A stretch of 24,254 nucleotides of DNA, taken from positions 1-24,254 of the IMG/VR virus record IMGVR_UViG_2734482781_000007; one strand, given 5' to 3'. Positions within the stretch are counted from its first letter, which is position 1, and each line of letters begins with the position of its first letter. A model generated the notes under the pieces. The model saw only the letters and a list, made by a program, of their open reading frames with translations. It did not search any database and was not told the origin of the DNA. The position numbers and the translations under genes are program-made. This DNA is from a virus. Its lineage: Duplodnaviria > Heunggongvirae > Uroviricota > Caudoviricetes. Positions 2,916 to 12,940 of this stretch are shown piece after piece.

Positions 2916-3008
2916 CAGCACAAATAAAACACCAGATTAAATAAGAAAACGTGAAAACCATCCGAATTAACGGAGGCATTCACACACGTAAATAATGGAG
3001 ATACAAAA

Positions 3009-3419
3009 ATGAACGCAAAAGAAAAAGGCATTATAACTGCGCTAAAAAATATATCGGAGACCGCAAACAGAGCCATTCAGGATGCAACAAATGCAGGAAT
3101 GATTGGGCCTGCCACCACAGCCATGATGATAGCAAGAGTAACCGCCGAAGCAGCCGAAATTATCGAAAAACAGGATGCTGAACTAACGGTTCTCAGAACA
3201 CAACCAGTCACCGAACTGGATTTGTCTAACACCGGACGCCTTATTTACACAATTGGCTCGGAGCCACAGCAATACACCATTATCGTCGGATTACAGGATA
3301 AATACCTGATCACTCCTCACCCCATAAGGGAATCAGAAATTCTGACAAATCTCCGCCTGATAGAGCGCTCTCAAGTCGCATTCATTGATGACGCACAGCG
3401 CACCGTATTTAACGCATAG
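3009..3419 (+). CDS. Hypothetical early protein
   Basis: 136-aa ORF on the operon strand with GGAG a few bases upstream of the ATG; no family recognised. Confidence 0.5.
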   Translation: MNAKEKGIITALKNISETANRAIQDATNAGMIGPATTAMMIARVTAEAAEIIEKQDAELTVLRTQPVTELDLSNTGRLIYTIGSEPQQYTIIVGLQDKYLITPHPIRESEILTNLRLIERSQVAFIDDAQRTVFNA

Positions 3420-3442
3420 GGTTACTGGACAAAGGGGGCGCA

Positions 3443-3646
3443 ATGGCAATTAAGCGTTTTTCCGTCATTCGTTTCACATCCAGAGGGCGTGAATACGAGG
3501 TTGACGAACGGCTGATTAAAACGCTCGACCGTCACCGTTCGCAACCTGACGCGCATCACATTTACCTCACTGACGACACTTACTTCTGCGCCACCAACGT
3601 GGTGCAGGTGAATCTTATCAAACAGGTACAGGAGTCACGCAGATGA
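3443..3646 (+). CDS. Hypothetical early protein
   Basis: 67-aa ORF with AAGGGGG SD-like sequence upstream; stop overlaps the next start. Confidence 0.45.
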   Translation: MAIKRFSVIRFTSRGREYEVDERLIKTLDRHRSQPDAHHIYLTDDTYFCATNVVQVNLIKQVQESRR

Positions 3647-6272: not shown

Positions 6273-9095
6273 ATGACGGCAGAGCACATCAGGGACTGGC
6301 AACAACCGCGCCACGCAGTAGGGCGGGAAGGAACGGGGATCCCCGCACCTGAATCCGCGCTTTCTTCCTGGCTGGATGCCTACCGGGCAGAGAACGAGCA
6401 CCGCCAGGAAAAGGCTGATGCGGCGTTCTCCGCCACGCCACTGGGCAATCTGATTAATAAAAGCCTGGACGCACAGGAAAAACAGGACAAAACCATCACG
6501 CTGGCAGGAGACGCCAGAAGACAGGCACGCGGCGCGGTGGATGAAGCCATGGCCTCGCTGCGCCTGCTGCCGTCCTATCTGCGCGATCCGCTTATTCGCC
6601 ACCTCTCCTTCCTGCGCAAAAAACAGGAAGCCGATCGCCGGAAAGGAAAAAAGAACTGGCAGGCTGAACGTTACGCGCACGGAACCCTGCGCAAAATATT
6701 CGAACGTCTGGACTGCACCGACCGTCGCTGGCTGACTCCGGGTTATCGCTCCCTTGCCGGACGTGAACGCCTGGACGATTTGCTGTACCTGCCACAGCTC
6801 AACAAGCACCAGATACAGACGCTGGCCACCATGACGGCGGCGATGTTCAGCAGCACCTTCGAAAAGCTCTGCGATGGCTTTGGCGCGACCGATGGCGAGC
6901 TGACTATGGATATAACGCTGAAGGTGTATCAGATGCTGGCCCGCATGGCGTTACACCTGCACGCCATGCCTCCACATTATGACGCACTGACAACAGACAA
7001 AGACCGGAGGAACGAACCGGACACGGAGCTGCTGCCGGGCGCAATCCTTCGCCTGACCTGTGCGGAATGGTGGAAACGCAAACTGTGGCTGTTACGTTGC
7101 GAGTGGAGAGAAGAACAACTCCGCGCCGCCTGTCTGGTTTCCAGAAAAACATCACCCTATCTGAGCCAGGACGCGTTAAGCGAGTTTCGCGCACAGCGCG
7201 AGAAAACACGCGATTTCCTGAAAAGTTTCATGCTGGAAAATGAAGACGGGTTCACGATTGATCTCGAGACAGTGTATTACGCGGGAGTAAGTAACCCGGT
7301 TCACCGTAAGGCAGAAATGATGGCCACCATGAAGGGGTTGGAACTTCTGGCCGAAGCCCGTGGCGACAAAGCGGTGTTTCTGACTGTCACCTGCCCGTCA
7401 AAATACCACGCCACAACGGAGAACGGTCATCCGAATCCCAAATGGAACGGGGCCACAATGCGCGACTCCAGCGATTACCTGGTTAACACGTTTTTTGCGG
7501 CGGTCCGCAAAAAACTGAACCGCGACGGCCTGCGCTGGTATGGCATCCGCACGGTGGAGCCTCATCATGACGGCACCGTGCACTGGCATATGATGGTCTT
7601 TGCACATCCGGAAGAAATCGACACCATTGTGTCCCATACCCGCGATATTGCCATTCAGGAAGACCGCCACGAGCTGGGCAATGATATTACTCCGCGCTTT
7701 AAGGTGGAGTATGTCGACGGCTCAAAAGGCACGCCAACCAGCTACATCGCCACCTACATCGGAAAGAACCTGGACAGCCGCGCCGTGGATGGCATCGACC
7801 CGAAAACGGGCAAGCCACGCGTGGACCACGAAACCGGAAAATCAATGGCCGAGAGCGTGGAGCGCGCCATCGGCTGGGCGCGCCTTCACCGGGTCCGTCA
7901 GTTCCAGTTCTTTGGCATCCCCTCCCGTCAGGTGTGGCGTGAACTGCGCCGCCTTGCCAGCCAGATGGCACGCAATCCGGAAGGCCCGCAACGGCTGAAA
8001 GATGATGCAATGGATGCGGTACTCGCTGCCGCCGATGCCGGGTGTTTTGCCACCTACATTAAAAAACAGGGTGGCGTGCTTGTTCCACGCAAGGACTACC
8101 TGATTCGCACCGCCTACGACCTCGCAGATGAGCTGAACGATTACGGCGAACAGAGCGTACAGATTTACGGGATCTGGTCACCACTCATCGGGGAATCCTC
8201 CCGTGTGTGCACGCATCCGGATAACTGGAAGCTGGTAAGACGTAAACCGGAAGCGGAAGACAGCGCCCGCGAAAATGGTTTTGACCTTCAGGGCGGCCCT
8301 GCCGACCCTTGGACTCGTGGCAATAACTGTCCCCGTGTACAGGAAACAGACAACAACGGGACAGAACAGCCGGAAGAACGGCCAGCACTGTGGCCGCAGC
8401 TTCCTGACGGCGTTGATGTGGATGAATGGATGCGCTCACTGAAACGGCACGAACGCCGGGCGCTGATGCGTTCGCTTCGTGACAAACAGGCAAAAAACAG
8501 CAGTGATGAAATGCAGAGCTGGACACAGAGCCGCAAACAGCAGCGGCCTTTGCCTGATAACCACGAATTACTCGCTAAAGAATGGCGGGAGTCTGCTGAA
8601 TCTCTCGGCCTGCATATCGGTGAACAACAGATGCAGCACCTGTTACGGGGCGGCAGTCTGTACGTTGACGGCAGCATCATTGCACCGCAGGGATTTGAAA
8701 TTGTACGCAAACCGGATACCCGCCCGGACAGCCGAATCACGCAGCTCTGGCAGCGCCTGAGCCGTAATCACGGCGTAAGCAGCACGGAGATCCGCCATAA
8801 CCCGGTCTCCAGCTATCTGGCACAGCTCGGGGCATCAGACCCCGAAGCCGCCGCACGCCTGGCATCCACACTTCAGCAGGTCCAGAACACCATGAAAACA
8901 CCCGTTACCGTGCTTTCTGACATGCTGCGCGCCATTCGTGACGCGGAGCACGCACAGAGAATCAGAGAAACCACTGAACGCGCCCGCCGCAAAGCAAACC
9001 TGCTGAGGGCTGGCCTGACCAGTGGAAACAAAAAACAGACAGAAACGGGATTCACAAATCCCGTAAATGAGCAAAAAACGCGCCGCGATATATGA
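6273..9095 (+). CDS. A: Replication initiation endonuclease gpA (HUH rolling-circle initiator) with long C-terminal extension
   Basis: 940-aa ORF; HUH-like motif HWHMMVF and tyrosine pair in SYIATYIGKNLD, typical of P2 gpA/phiX174 A-type relaxases; last early gene before the accessory locus. Confidence 0.85.
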   Translation: MTAEHIRDWQQPRHAVGREGTGIPAPESALSSWLDAYRAENEHRQEKADAAFSATPLGNLINKSLDAQEKQDKTITLAGDARRQARGAVDEAMASLRLLPSYLRDPLIRHLSFLRKKQEADRRKGKKNWQAERYAHGTLRKIFERLDCTDRRWLTPGYRSLAGRERLDDLLYLPQLNKHQIQTLATMTAAMFSSTFEKLCDGFGATDGELTMDITLKVYQMLARMALHLHAMPPHYDALTTDKDRRNEPDTELLPGAILRLTCAEWWKRKLWLLRCEWREEQLRAACLVSRKTSPYLSQDALSEFRAQREKTRDFLKSFMLENEDGFTIDLETVYYAGVSNPVHRKAEMMATMKGLELLAEARGDKAVFLTVTCPSKYHATTENGHPNPKWNGATMRDSSDYLVNTFFAAVRKKLNRDGLRWYGIRTVEPHHDGTVHWHMMVFAHPEEIDTIVSHTRDIAIQEDRHELGNDITPRFKVEYVDGSKGTPTSYIATYIGKNLDSRAVDGIDPKTGKPRVDHETGKSMAESVERAIGWARLHRVRQFQFFGIPSRQVWRELRRLASQMARNPEGPQRLKDDAMDAVLAAADAGCFATYIKKQGGVLVPRKDYLIRTAYDLADELNDYGEQSVQIYGIWSPLIGESSRVCTHPDNWKLVRRKPEAEDSARENGFDLQGGPADPWTRGNNCPRVQETDNNGTEQPEERPALWPQLPDGVDVDEWMRSLKRHERRALMRSLRDKQAKNSSDEMQSWTQSRKQQRPLPDNHELLAKEWRESAESLGLHIGEQQMQHLLRGGSLYVDGSIIAPQGFEIVRKPDTRPDSRITQLWQRLSRNHGVSSTEIRHNPVSSYLAQLGASDPEAAARLASTLQQVQNTMKTPVTVLSDMLRAIRDAEHAQRIRETTERARRKANLLRAGLTSGNKKQTETGFTNPVNEQKTRRDI

Positions 9096-10135: not shown

Positions 10136-10447
10136 ATGACGACACCAACCAGACGGATAAGTTTCTATCTGAAGCCCGCCGCCGTCAAGAACGAAGGCGA
10201 AGCATGCGCCTGGCTGGACAGCCTTACACCAGAAGCCCGCAAAAGCGGCCAACGCGTGGCTTTTCTGGCCGGGCTGGCACTTCTGAAAATGAATCCAGCA
10301 GAGGCTTACCGACTGGCTGCATGGGCTGATGATGAAGCGTTATCAGTGACACAAACCAGGACAGAACGCCCCGCATCACAGCCAGTATCAACCGCACAGA
10401 TAACCAGCCAGATGGCCGGAAATATCCGGGCGTTATTTCCCGAATAA
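10136..10447 (+). CDS. parR: ParR-like centromere-binding protein (ribbon-helix-helix type)
   Basis: 103-aa ORF from ATG 10136 (AAGGAG SD; the longer ORF-track reading from 10001 overlaps parM); RRISFYLKPAAV...LDSL...AFLAGLALL parallels R1 ParR as recalled; gene order parM-parR as in R1. Confidence 0.65.
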   Translation: MTTPTRRISFYLKPAAVKNEGEACAWLDSLTPEARKSGQRVAFLAGLALLKMNPAEAYRLAAWADDEALSVTQTRTERPASQPVSTAQITSQMAGNIRALFPE

Positions 10448-10452
10448 CACAA

Positions 10453-10476
10453 CATCAGGGCGAGTTCGCCCTGATG
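10453..10476. terminator. Perfect 10-bp-stem hairpin between convergent parR and the minus-strand cargo gene
   Basis: CATCAGGGCG-AGTT-CGCCCTGATG at 10453-10476; a U-rich tract follows only on the minus-strand transcript side. Confidence 0.5.
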
Positions 10477-10492
10477 CACAAAACATGCAAAA

Positions 10493-11089
10493 TCAGAATT
10501 TAGTATGCAATTTATCTACCAATCGCTTAGCCTCATTAAGCAGTTTTTGGTATTCCCTGCTATCGTTTTCCTGATCTTCATACGCTCGCCGAACACGCCA
10601 TCGAAGAGCAAGGCATTTTAAGTTCCGGTAAAACCTCGGATTACGCTTGCGGCACTCTTCCATATAAGGTTCAAAATGGACATCAAGAAAGATTAAGGTA
10701 GAACCATAAACACGATATAGATACCGCTCATCATACAAACCGTTATTCACGGCATTGGCACAACGCTCCCATTCATTAAAGATGAGCTTTAACGCTTTTG
10801 AACCATCTGTTTGAGAATATTCTTCTTTTCCCCAGTCTGCGATTGGGAAATTGTAGCGGTCCTTGTAGATACGCAGCACTTCAGACCACGCCTCAACTAT
10901 GTCTTTATTGCGTTTGTATGCCGCCTCAAAGTCCAACGAGTTTTTTTCGCGCGACGTCTTTCTTTGATTTCGTATACTAATCACTGCAATAAGCGCCCCT
11001 GCCACCCCCGGGTAGAAGGTAGGGCTGGAGTTCCAGATGTCTGAAAGAAACTTCCATCCACCACAAAGAATAGAAAGCACTAGATCCAT
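10493..11089 (-). CDS. Membrane-anchored hypothetical protein, AT-rich hotspot cargo (candidate phage-defence or exclusion protein)
   Basis: ORF 10493-11098; most likely start is ATG at 11089 (198 aa) because the ORF-track start is TTG. N-terminal hydrophobic segment (DLVLSILCGG...PGVAGALIAVISI), then a roughly 150-aa charged soluble domain with no recognised motif. Base composition visibly more AT-rich than flanking prophage DNA. Confidence 0.6.
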   Translation of the reverse strand: MDLVLSILCGGWKFLSDIWNSSPTFYPGVAGALIAVISIRNQRKTSREKNSLDFEAAYKRNKDIVEAWSEVLRIYKDRYNFPIADWGKEEYSQTDGSKALKLIFNEWERCANAVNNGLYDERYLYRVYGSTLIFLDVHFEPYMEECRKRNPRFYRNLKCLALRWRVRRAYEDQENDSREYQKLLNEAKRLVDKLHTKF

Positions 11090-11098
11090 TATTTTCAA

Positions 11099-11128
11099 CC
11101 ATAAAAAATGGGAGCCAAAGCCCCCATT
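11099..11128 (-). terminator. Intrinsic-terminator-like hairpin plus U-tract on the minus strand, about 10 nt upstream of the cargo gene start
   Basis: Minus-strand RNA AAUGGGGGC-UUUG-GCUCCCAUU followed by UUUUUAU (9-bp stem with one G-U pair). Confidence 0.45.
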
Positions 11129-11157
11129 CTACTGAAACTACTCTAAAAAAACAGGAG

Positions 11158-11202
11158 TTAAACGTCCCAGTTTTCTTCGCTATAGGTGCAGCGTACGGTC
11201 AT
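11158..11202 (-). other. Mini-ORF (14 codons, MTVRCTYSEENWDV) with GGAGA SD, upstream of the hairpin: possible leader peptide
   Basis: Minus-strand ATG at 11202, TAA at 11158-11160; sits 5' of the terminator-like hairpin and the cargo gene. Confidence 0.25.
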
Positions 11203-11443
11203 AGTTAGTCTCCTTTTTTCAATCATTTAAACATCACTAATTTACTTTTAACATGGAGATGGTTTTACAGTTGTCAACCACCTCCCCCAAATCTGTTGGG
11301 GTAAGCTATCACGCCTACCATACACATACAATGATGAGGCTATATCGTGTAGGCACACTGACAAGGATAAGTTCATCTTCTTCGCTGTCTTAATGTGACC
11401 AAATATAGCACATTTGAAGCGATATACATCCTGTAATGATACT

Positions 11444-11469
11444 GCACAATAGTGCACAAATTTGCACAA
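11444..11469. repeat. Three direct GCACAA repeats at exact 10-bp phasing in an AT-rich stretch
   Basis: GCACAA at 11444, 11454 and 11464, followed by a T7 run. Confidence 0.6.
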
Positions 11470-11494
11470 TTTTTTTGAACGACTTTTTGCCCTT

Positions 11495-11535
11495 CCGGCC
11501 CGCGTGGCGGCTGGATCCGTCAAGGATCCGTGCGT
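11495..11535. other. Candidate cos region (uncertain)
   Basis: GCGTGGCGG at 11501-11509 resembles the start of the 19-nt cohesive end of P2/186-type phages as recalled; tandem GGATCCGT repeats at 11513 and 11526; location between accessory locus and Q fits the P2 map. Exact cos not established. Confidence 0.25.
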
Positions 11536-11842
11536 GCACAAAAAAACGCGCTTTTTCTGCGCGCAGGTGACGGGGGAACAGCCCGCGTTTCAGGGGGTAA
11601 ATAGCATTCCCTGAACGATGTCGCAGAGATACAACAGAATGGCTGTATTTCTCACGCTGAGTGTGAAAAAGACGTGAGGGCTTTTGATTTGATGGGGTGA
11701 AAGGTAAGGCCGTCAAAATCGCACTGAGACGGCGAGAACATGCAGTCAACGCGGTGGGATTGCGTAAGAGTCTGACTGTCGATGATGGCAATCAGCAGGA
11801 AAGCATCGTGAAATTATCTGACTGATACAGGAGCTGGAGAGT

Positions 11843-11893: not shown

Positions 11894-12940
11894 TCAGGAT
11901 GTGGGCTGGGTGTCTAACAGTGCGTAAGGGTTAAAGCGGATCACCTCTTCGCCAAGCCAGTCATTGATGTGCTTCATAGCCTCCATGACGGGCATCAGCT
12001 CGTTAATTGCGTAAACCCGCGCGGCCTTCTCCACATCACCAAACGCACTTTTTTCGCCCGGCATCGCCCCCATCAGTTGCGGCGGAACACGGTGCGCAGC
12101 CAGCACATCATCACGGGATGCCGCCTTAACATTCATGAACTCATCCTTTGCGGTGATCTGCTGGAACGGCAAAATTTGCACCCCCTCTTTGCCCCCGTTG
12201 GGCGCATGGATGAGCACGTTTTTAAACGCGCCACCACCACGTGCACCCTGTAGCGTTTCTTTCAGGGAGTCCATGCTTTCGCGGTTTACCTGCGCTGCAC
12301 CGATGTAGATGATGCACCCGGCGTGGGATCCATTGTCGTAATACAGTTTTCTGAACATGTCCGCCGAATGAGACAGGCTGGCCGAGAGTAATGCGCCAAG
12401 ATATTCCGGCATGCCGTAAATTTCCTGGTTAATATCCGGATTCATCAGGTGGCACACTTTGCCAGGGCGAAACTGGAACGCGTCCTTGCCATCCTGCACA
12501 TACCACCATGATTCAAGATCGCTTCCGCGTCGCATGTATTTCGCCAGTGCGTGCCGTAATTTAAGCGGTTCGCCGAGTATATTGCTTCTAAGCTCAAGGA
12601 ATGCGTTACCGAACACAAACCAGTCCAGCGCCAGCGCCGAGAAATCCTGCCGGGAAAGCAGCGGGTGCGGGATGTAGCAACCGAGTAATACATTGCGCTT
12701 AAAGTAAAGCGCAGACTGATGCCAGGACGTTTGCCGGGCTGCTCTTGCCAGACCGTACCAGTCCACCGGGGTTTCATACCACCGCCCGTTATCAGCACAG
12801 TACATATTGTCCAGCAGGTCATGCCCGGTCAGGCGATAAGGACCATCAAATGTGAATGCACTGAGCGATGATTCTTTCCTGAGCGCATCAGCGAGATCAA
12901 TGCGTGAACTCATGCGCACTTTTTTATTTTTTCTGCTCAT
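11894..12940 (-). CDS. Q: Portal protein gpQ
   Basis: 348-aa ORF, leftward, overlapping the P stop by one base; size and sequence consistent with P2 Q; first gene next to the cos region as in P2. Confidence 0.85.
   Translation of the reverse strand: MSRKNKKVRMSSRIDLADALRKESSLSAFTFDGPYRLTGHDLLDNMYCADNGRWYETPVDWYGLARAARQTSWHQSALYFKRNVLLGCYIPHPLLSRQDFSALALDWFVFGNAFLELRSNILGEPLKLRHALAKYMRRGSDLESWWYVQDGKDAFQFRPGKVCHLMNPDINQEIYGMPEYLGALLSASLSHSADMFRKLYYDNGSHAGCIIYIGAAQVNRESMDSLKETLQGARGGGAFKNVLIHAPNGGKEGVQILPFQQITAKDEFMNVKAASRDDVLAAHRVPPQLMGAMPGEKSAFGDVEKAARVYAINELMPVMEAMKHINDWLGEEVIRFNPYALLDTQPTS

Follow-up and report, generated by a model that had tools for sequence, protein, structure and literature searches.

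Several described systems place a short upstream product, a terminator, and a downstream protein in a fixed order. In ToxIN and other type III toxin-antitoxin and abortive-infection loci, which are carried on mobile elements, one promoter serves an abundant, neutralizing upstream product, a terminator that sets the ratio, and a scarce downstream protein (PMC3401426, PMC5086642). In the microcin C operon, the very short mccA open reading frame (ORF), with its strong ribosome-binding site (RBS), precedes an intrinsic terminator and mccB; the short transcript is abundant, read-through is rare, and ribosome binding to the mini-ORF controls termination (PMC4231749). Leader-peptide attenuators and arrest peptides such as trpL, TnaC, SecM, and MifM likewise combine a short upstream ORF bearing a C-proximal Trp or acidic motif with a terminator and a regulated gene. 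Here, we compare these systems with an insert in a tailed-phage sequence (Caudoviricetes) of 24,254 nucleotides, positions 1 to 24,254 of the IMG/VR record IMGVR_UViG_2734482781_000007, which we call the window. The insert lies in the hotspot between the replication endonuclease gene (gpA) and the portal gene (gpQ) of P2-like prophages, which was shown to serve as a reservoir for anti-phage systems (Rousset et al. 2022, PMC9122126). It carries a conserved micro-ORF, an intrinsic terminator, and a gene for a protein of the DUF4760 family. While that family is already named and catalogued, we found no earlier description of a conserved micropeptide-terminator-DUF4760 cassette in the literature searched.

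The initial annotation had treated the insert as the cargo of a single gene. That picture does not hold, since a conserved micro-ORF and a terminator precede the DUF4760 gene. The main elements are as follows.

10478 to 11441, minus strand: AT-rich variable insert, a horizontally acquired cassette, delimited by the break and resumption of homology, by guanine-plus-cytosine (GC) content, and by its presence in 15 of 1154 E. coli records that share the flanks
11210 to 11214, minus strand: strong Shine-Dalgarno (SD) sequence AGGAG, 7 nucleotides upstream of the micro-ORF ATG, with an anti-SD duplex of -8.7 kcal/mol
11158 to 11202, minus strand: micro-ORF encoding MTVRCTYSEENWDV (14 codons plus stop), recognized from the sequence, its homologues, and the pN/pS ratio given below
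11099 to 11130, minus strand: intrinsic terminator with its stem at 11105-11130, a UUUG loop, and a U-run at 11099-11104 (free energy of -15.5 kcal/mol)
10493 to 11089, minus strand: DUF4760 gene, 198 amino acids from its ATG, recognized as an ORF and by Pfam PF15956; an alternative in-frame TTG at 11098 would give 201 amino acids

Comparative sequence evidence indicates that the micropeptide is translated and under purifying selection. When we computed the ratio of nonsynonymous to synonymous polymorphism (pN/pS) over 21 distinct 8-codon motif blocks, the reading frame of the peptide gave a pS of 0.78, a pN of 0.21, and a ratio of 0.275, compared with 0.97 and 0.84 in the other two frames. 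Third positions were free to vary (GAA/GAG, GAT/GAC, GGT/GGC, CGT/CGC), while the amino acids were fixed. It is from this frame-specific signal, together with the free third positions, that we conclude that the peptide is both translated and selected. In addition, a strong RBS and a micro-ORF were found upstream of DUF4760 in all lineages examined but one, across Escherichia, Klebsiella, Vibrio and Pseudomonas phages, marine bacteria, IMG/VR prophages, and metagenomes. We counted 31 distinct peptides. They are encoded by micro-ORFs of 11 to 21 codons and share a terminal motif, [Y/F]xEE[N/D]W[G/D]Φ, with the following representatives.

Klebsiella: MKNRFNEENWDV
Klebsiella, second locus: MTKFVKIFNEENWGF
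E. coli: MKKIYREEDWGVFISK
Siccibacter: MKTFREEDWGLS
Colwellia: MKQFKKILNEELWD
Pseudoalteromonas: MLISKHNPEEEKWT
Vibrio phage E8498: MMKKTYQEEDWGFDIKS
Pseudomonas phage D14E: ...VVREEYEGI
Citrobacter phage Shae_phiSM: MKKVFDEFDGF
IMG/VR prophages: many variants
Metagenomic island: MNNIAYREEDWGLF
Metagenomic contig: MMLKTYREEDWGLIK
Metagenomic P2-like contig: MMKEIYREEDWLF
Another metagenomic island: ...AKEIDLGFM

The peptide core Y[R/Q]EEDWG was identical between cassettes whose DUF4760 proteins are 34 to 39% identical. Judged from these alignments, the core is better conserved than the protein encoded downstream. Two other ideas about the region were dismissed. A second mini-ORF that starts within the terminator (AUGG) is not conserved, and mimicry of the C-terminal tail of the single-stranded DNA-binding protein SSB does not fit the several lineages in which the peptide continues past the motif. 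As a separate observation, an invariant helix of DUF4760 itself, FNEWERCANA, bears a likeness to the micropeptide motif (FNEENW in the Klebsiella type, for example), which could be coincidence or self-mimicry. In an island with an integrase and AlpA (L044-L046, 2757-3605), a DUF6387 gene of 281 amino acids stands directly upstream of the micro-ORF and DUF4760 on the same strand. This adjacency was seen in three independent assemblies, and DUF6387 may be a partner of the cassette.

The second conserved element is the terminator. Reading along the minus strand of the window, the micro-ORF is followed by a 27-nucleotide spacer, the terminator, about 10 nucleotides, and the start of DUF4760. A hairpin with a U-run was also present in all 21 of the other loci that we folded, with free energies of -13 to -20 kcal/mol, at 16 to 35 nucleotides past the micro-ORF stop; the distance from the peptide motif to the terminator ranged from 26 to 59 nucleotides. 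The two genes differ in their expected translation. Over 25 loci, the anti-SD duplex averaged -7.7 kcal/mol for the micro-ORF versus -2.2 kcal/mol for DUF4760, and the micro-ORF had the stronger SD in 24 of them. The DUF4760 gene of the window is typical in this respect, with a poor SD (-2.2 kcal/mol). A strong terminator combined with this asymmetry would yield an abundant short transcript and peptide, rare read-through, and poor translation of DUF4760. Two arrangements depart from the pattern: in lineage L051a the micro-ORF directly abuts DUF4760 and there is no terminator, and in lineage L051b/L052 both the micro-ORF and the terminator are missing.

Two further features lie upstream of the micro-ORF.

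11255 to 11285, minus strand: 10-bp perfect hairpin (GGAGGUGGUU / AACCAUCUCC) in the presumed 5' untranslated region (UTR), read from the sequence and the upstream alignment
11303 to 11331, minus strand: candidate promoter identified by conservation, with a -35 element TTGTAT (11326-11331), a 17-nucleotide spacer, and a TG-extended -10 element TAGCTT (11303-11308)

Stems like that at 11255-11285 were recognized by eye in related cassettes, and the block ATTGTATGT-N10-GCGTGATAGCTTAC is kept in six cassette lineages of the upstream alignment. A structured 5' UTR of about 90 nucleotides would precede the micro-ORF. No promoter-like site emerged here from a consensus scan; the candidate is weak against the sigma-70 consensus, and it was conservation that singled it out. 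A -35-like TTGACA was noticed in the loop of the hairpin at 11255-11285. A match to the ribosomal protein L20 leader in Rfam (window 11094-11221, minus strand) reached 21.5 bits against a gathering threshold of 58.7 (E 0.23). The terminator hairpin and the spacer rich in U and A account for this subthreshold match, the only one from Rfam, and we took it as chance.

The third element is the DUF4760 protein. The initial annotation had correctly placed a minus-strand gene of 198 amino acids at 10493-11089, convergent with parR, and had described its product as a protein with an N-terminal membrane anchor and a charged C-terminal domain. Our analysis agrees with that description. A hydrophobic segment at residues 23-40 (Kyte-Doolittle 1.6) is probably a transmembrane anchor, and it is followed by the basic stretch RNQRKTSREK, from which the C-terminal domain, charged and basic (isoelectric point of 9.1), is predicted to be cytoplasmic. 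The annotation had also called the protein undescribed, of unknown family, and free of recognized motifs, which proved mistaken. The protein matches DUF4760 (Pfam PF15956) with 86 bits against a cut-off of 25 bits (E=3.6e-24, model positions 5-141 of 141) and phrog_2284 of PHROGs, a group with no known function. The DUF4760 label already stands in the RefSeq annotation and in the part of Table S5 of PMC9122126 that was available. In all 60 of the diverse relatives scanned, DUF4760 was the only strong match, with no second family. A profile search of 1.84 billion cluster representatives returned 604 clusters at E<=1e-3, and a scan of the genome collection returned only 3 loci. In the members that we inspected, a hydrophobic segment at the N-terminus is accompanied by the shared motifs (R/K)EKN(S/T)LDFE, NxWE(R)xAN, YDxx(F/Y)LY, and WLxxW. 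Alignment and hydropathy give the window protein this same architecture, with SREKNSLDFE, FNEWERCANA, and YGST falling in invariant alignment columns. Beyond DUF4760, the NCBIfam scan of the window protein returned no match and a sequence-profile search of the PDB with DUF4760 returned nothing meaningful. No functional study of DUF4760, PF15956, or the peptide strings was found in the literature searched, where the family is mentioned in a Serratia genomic-island study. The family also occurs in multiple copies. One island (L051) holds two DUF4760 genes, at 1548-2048 and 3001-3480, flanked by HipA, Imm11, a DprA-like gene, and a gene of 415 amino acids. A separate protein of 425 amino acids (P0061) joins two complete DUF4760 units in tandem, and each unit has a hydrophobic anchor of its own.

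An AlphaFold2 model of the protein (predicted local distance difference test score of 89) contains nine helices, and the domain beyond the anchor is predicted to be all-alpha and cytoplasmic, with about 160 residues. One idea is that DUF4760 could be a membrane-tethered small-molecule receptor akin to the EP domain of the plant proteins EDS1, PAD4, and SAG101, sensing a nucleotide-derived immune signal and acting on it at the membrane. Such a role would be compatible with each of the other explanations considered below. We regard it as very improbable. Foldseek returned no significant match to the model in the PDB; SAG101 came third, with an E value of 3.4 and a match probability of 0.11, and the one hit in BFVD was an unnamed protein (E 4.6e-3). 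No profile in Pfam or the PDB links the family beyond DUF4760, and all-alpha bundles often match by analogy. Furthermore, DUF4760 lacks a lipase-like domain, its N-terminus being the membrane anchor, and the cassette contains no TIR or cyclase partner.

Taken together, our preferred explanation is that the insert is a two-part conflict module with a trans-acting micropeptide, a reading that we hold tentatively and at somewhat short of an even chance. The insert would be a transcription unit that is both mobile and self-contained. It would occupy the gpA/parMR-cos-gpQ hotspot as accessory cargo of the moron kind, dispensable for the growth of the phage. The unit would run from a weak candidate promoter through the structured 5' UTR, strong RBS, and micro-ORF to the terminator and a DUF4760 gene with almost no SD. 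Most transcripts would end past the micro-ORF, leaving the micropeptide in large excess, and DUF4760 would be made only from the rare transcripts that read through. DUF4760 would most likely be a potentially harmful membrane effector for exclusion or abortive infection of competing phages, and the micropeptide its trans-acting partner, most simply a labile inhibitor resembling the antitoxin of a toxin-antitoxin pair. As in ToxIN, the terminator would set the ratio of peptide to effector. Should an infecting phage shut off host expression, the peptide would be depleted and the effector freed.

The order of upstream product, terminator, and downstream protein has precedents in type III toxin-antitoxin loci (PMC3401426) and in mccA-mccB (PMC4231749). 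The layout corresponds to that of a toxin-antitoxin pair, in that a putative neutralizing product lies upstream and, given its strong SD, the terminator, and the weak SD of DUF4760, would be in excess. Like the type III loci, the cassette is carried on a mobile element. It differs from them in that its upstream product is a translated peptide of 14 residues rather than a repeated RNA and its downstream protein is membrane anchored and helical rather than an endoribonuclease.

Several points weigh against this reading. Both the toxicity of DUF4760 and its interaction with the peptide are pure inference, and we know of no precedent for a hydrophilic antitoxin of 12 to 16 residues. That conservation of the peptide core exceeds that of its protein partner would be easier to understand if the core contacted universal machinery, e.g., the ribosome. 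The hydrophobic segment barely reaches the usual transmembrane threshold. In lineage L051b/L052, DUF4760 has a good RBS and neither micro-ORF nor terminator, and the Colwellia and Pseudoalteromonas copies form small chromosomal islets between housekeeping genes. PADLOC-DB v2 contained no family matching the window protein, even at E<=10, and the databases and literature searched held no direct evidence of abortive infection, exclusion, or anti-phage activity. Finally, DUF4760 is absent from the tested systems in Table S2 of PMC9122126.

An alternative is that the micro-ORF acts in cis, as a leader encoding a nascent-chain arrest peptide or serving as a translation sensor. A ribosome positioned on EE[N/D]WG would decide whether transcription reads through, and DUF4760 would stay off unless translation were perturbed, for example by phage infection, a metabolite, or ion stress. 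The cassette shows the hallmark of an attenuator, a 5' leader in which a short translated ORF precedes an intrinsic terminator, and conservation of the peptide core far beyond that of the protein is what would be expected from contact with the ribosome. Acidic clusters and Trp near the peptidyl-transferase center recur in the arrest peptides MifM (DEED), SecM, and TnaC. An arrest-based mechanism is attractive because the extreme conservation of the peptide is joined by Trp and acidic residues typical of such peptides. In the microcin C operon, ribosome binding to the 7-codon mccA ORF controls the terminator that follows (PMC4231749). A hairpin over the motif or stop codons was also predicted in most lineages, but it barely outperformed dinucleotide shuffles (mean z of only -0.97).

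The competing, ribosome-position-dependent antiterminator pairing that an attenuator requires was not detected. When truncated transcripts were folded, the 5' arm of the terminator paired with different upstream segments in different lineages, with no consistent partner, and codon-by-codon masking of the ribosome footprint had no consistent effect. Native 5' arms gained nothing over shuffled ones in pairing with upstream RNA, with a mean z of +0.48 over 30 nucleotides and +0.10 over 110 nucleotides in what is a crude equilibrium test. There is no run of codons for a sensed amino acid; the conserved 8-residue unit offers only EE and a single W. The stop codon, 16 to 35 nucleotides before the stem, is too far away for steric blocking, and the distance from motif to stem is not fixed. 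The cassette thus departs from known attenuators and arrest peptides in lacking an antiterminator and a regulatory codon run, in its variable spacing, and in regulating prophage cargo rather than a biosynthetic or secretion gene. Given these inconsistent partners, absent masking effects, and z values, we rejected classical RNA-switch attenuation as unsupported. A kinetic, arrest-based, or protein-assisted switch may nevertheless operate. Overall, we consider a cis-acting leader less likely than our preferred explanation, though the strongest of its rivals. The lack of an antiterminator, the variable distance between motif and terminator, and the terminator-less L051a favor a trans-acting product over an attenuator that depends on geometry. 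An operon in which a terminator sets a high ratio of peptide to effector, as in our preferred explanation, fits both the lack of a detected switch and the terminator-less L051a.

Another possibility is that the cassette has no role in defense. DUF4760 could be a membrane factor of lysogenic-conversion or housekeeping type, concerned with envelope stress, accessory transport, or prophage maintenance. In a peptide-centered variant, the micropeptide would be the real product, a signal or a substrate like those of ribosomally synthesized and posttranslationally modified peptides (RiPPs), with DUF4760 as its processing or export partner. The order of precursor peptide gene, terminator, and processing enzyme is that of microcin C (PMC4231749), the invariant polar residues (E48, K49, N50, N105, E106, E108, R109, D120, Y125, and others) could form an active or binding site, and the housekeeping neighborhoods in Colwellia and Pseudoalteromonas would suit such a role. 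The resemblance to microcin C is limited, however. The cassette consists of only the micro-ORF and DUF4760. It carries neither a maturation enzyme, MccB-like or otherwise, nor genes for export or immunity, and no upstream antiterminating sequence was detectable in it. The searches linked DUF4760 to no family of enzymes, transporters, or RiPP-maturation proteins, and the peptide has neither leader/core organization nor an export signal. In addition, the genomic contexts are mostly prophage moron sites or mobile islands, and the rare, patchy distribution is typical of conflict genes. We consider a non-defense or peptide-centered role improbable.

A further alternative, in line with the initial annotation and one that we think has very little chance of being right, is that DUF4760 acts alone as a constitutive, single-gene exclusion or abortive-infection membrane protein, the micro-ORF and terminator being incidental. 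Single-gene membrane exclusion proteins such as SieB, Imm, Cor, and others are common in prophages, and the hotspot position, foreign composition, and membrane-anchored architecture of the cargo would fit this description, as would the DUF4760 gene of L051b/L052. Like SieB, RexB, Imm, and AbiZ-type proteins, DUF4760 is small and membrane anchored, has its gene at moron positions (beside cI, lysis genes, or prophage ends), and is probably expressed from the lysogen. It is not related to them in sequence, and it differs in having one probable transmembrane segment, a cytoplasmic helical domain of 160 residues, and an upstream micropeptide. No match to a known abortive-infection, superinfection-exclusion, or defense model was obtained. 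The micro-ORF accompanies the gene across orders of Gammaproteobacteria and among unrelated phage types while under purifying selection, which is incompatible with its being incidental.

The prophage setting bears on the reading of the insert as a conflict module. The prophage of the window belongs to the P2 family and is of P88/Xuanwuvirus type; E. coli RM8082 carries a 98%-identical copy. There, the annotated order is integrase, repressor, Cox, early genes, a replication endonuclease (gpA) of 940 amino acids, ParM, ParR, and the cargo; past the cargo come the portal (Q) and terminase (P) genes, encoded on the minus strand, with O, N, M, L, and the tail genes after them. In the window, the slot is laid out as gpA (6273-9095), parM, parR, the cargo, cos at about 11488, and the portal gene (11894-12940), which places the insert between the endonuclease and portal genes, adjoining cos. 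The genome record of Xuanwuvirus P884B11 begins at window position 11488. We delimited the insert by aligning the window with phage P88, Citrobacter phage Shae_phiSM, and E. coli 2011C-4251, all of which carry other cargo. Two features frame it.

10452 to 10477, no strand assigned: GC-rich hairpin just past the parR stop (10447) and 16 nucleotides beyond the DUF4760 stop
11442 to 11475, no strand assigned: start of the conserved right flank by alignment, with TTGTGCA present as three direct repeats ahead of the cos region (from about 11488 onward)

Homology extends through the hairpin, stops at about 10478, and returns at 11442, and from these two points the insert between parMR and cos/portal measures 964 bp. 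The initial annotation had thus recognized a real insert but misplaced its limits, which it put at 10448-11250. Likewise, the hairpin that it had assigned to the 3' end of the cargo gene belongs to the conserved flank; this terminator-like site in the scan is kept in P88 and E. coli 2011C-4251 despite their different cargo, and it may terminate transcription from both directions. The TTGTGCA repeats, about 10-11 bp apart (ctgcacaatagtgcacaaatttgcacaa on the plus strand), are invariant in all four aligned P88-like genomes and may be a protein-binding site, e.g., for terminase/cosB or a ParR centromere.

The composition of the cargo is clearly foreign. GC content falls to 0.42-0.45 over 10400-11600, compared with 0.55-0.60 on either side, and GC at third codon positions (GC3) follows the same trend, which bears out the earlier claim that the cargo is more AT-rich than its flanks.

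Cargo, 10478-11441: GC 0.415
DUF4760 gene: GC 0.436, GC3 0.44
A/parM/parR flank: GC 0.565, GC3 0.64 (A) and 0.66 (parM)
Q/P flank: GC 0.539, GC3 0.61 (both genes)

The flanks are common to 1153 of 5426 complete E. coli genomes, and this cargo is present in only 15 of them; the view of the A-to-cos interval as a variable slot is thus well founded. Three cassette types were found in 15, 3, and 0 of the 5426 genomes. Slot content varies among otherwise syntenic prophages (P88, Shae_phiSM, 2011C-4251, and 2015C-3121 carry other genes): P88 holds a ClpX-zinc-finger protein, Shae_phiSM a distant DUF4760 ("memP"), and others an Ea22-like pseudogene with a hypothetical gene or a hypothetical gene with an ASCH-domain gene. 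The slot of Shiga toxin-producing E. coli 2015C-3121 (L053, 2480-2720) retains a decayed remnant of a memP-type DUF4760 cassette in which the 5' UTR is kept, the micro-ORF start has changed from ATG to ATA, the terminator is degraded, and about 10 DUF4760 codons are left. Because this remnant adjoins newer cargo (the hypothetical and ASCH-domain genes), it provides direct evidence of cargo replacement at the hotspot.

The insert shares with the P2 old/tin cargo its position next to cos between the endonuclease and portal genes and its varying content among related prophages (PMC9122126). It differs in matching no validated system in PADLOC, and in this P88-like lineage parMR is part of the conserved core and only the 964 bp beyond it vary. 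The Pfam and PADLOC searches and structure comparisons proposed along with the initial annotation yielded a family name and neither a defense assignment nor a significant structural neighbor in the PDB. The available part of Table S5 of PMC9122126 lists the arrangement "DUF4760 + StbA + Plasmid_stab_B" at least 197 times. We rejected a functional link between DUF4760 and ParMR, since parMR is conserved core, DUF4760 is variable, and homologues occur in lambdoid phages that lack parMR.

Other observations concern the surrounding prophages. The P88 slot gene (L040, 1712-2044) was deposited as a "carboxylate--amine ligase," a label that looks wrong because the product has a ClpX C4-type zinc-finger domain (Pfam, 8.2e-18). 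Directly beyond the portal gene, at its 3' end, RM8082 (L001, 13602-14207) and 2015C-3121 (L053, 3290-3814) carry an extra, inserted ORF of 174 amino acids with no Pfam match. No such ORF occurs in the window (at about 11894), and its site, between cos and Q, is a second small region of variation. The gpA of the window, at 940 amino acids, is long compared with that of P2, which has about 761, and parM and parR follow it directly. This arrangement suggests that the integrated phage lineage may also be maintained as a plasmid.

Homologues elsewhere occupy a range of accessory positions. Among prophages and phages, the positions are the end of a lambdoid prophage beside focA, the interval separating antiterminator Q from the holin, and the end of a P2/HP1-like prophage on its ssrA side. 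In Pseudomonas phage D14E a homologue adjoins cI, and in another P2-like contig one adjoins Ogr/gpA. Others lie in islands that abound in toxin-antitoxin and defense genes, alongside integrases and AlpA, PIN-TPR and Xre-MbcA, or HipA, Imm11, and a DprA-like gene. With contexts of this kind in view, which make up all the evidence for a conflict role, the cassette is probably a module of phage-versus-phage conflict, and it is reasonable to regard DUF4760 as a candidate for exclusion or abortive infection.

Our findings turn the picture of a lone membrane protein into that of a two-part, tightly throttled module. The micro-ORF is a small gene of the kind that annotation pipelines overlook, and the cassette gives DUF4760 a concrete, testable genetic logic in which an abundant peptide is set against a throttled membrane protein. 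Even if the cassette had no anti-phage phenotype, it would be a clean example of a conserved, translated micro-ORF in prophage cargo. A broader proposal, which we consider doubtful at present, is that the micropeptide and DUF4760 form an unrecognized two-part immune module of temperate phages in Gammaproteobacteria, with the peptide as either a micro-antitoxin without predecessor or a new ribosome-arrest sensor of translation disturbed by phage, and the effector, a membrane-tethered helical domain, perhaps a prokaryotic counterpart of the EP domain. Were the resemblance to the EP domain real, another plant immune domain would join those that have relatives in prokaryotes. If the peptide is an antitoxin or an arrest-type sensor, it would represent a new regulatory principle for phage-defense modules.

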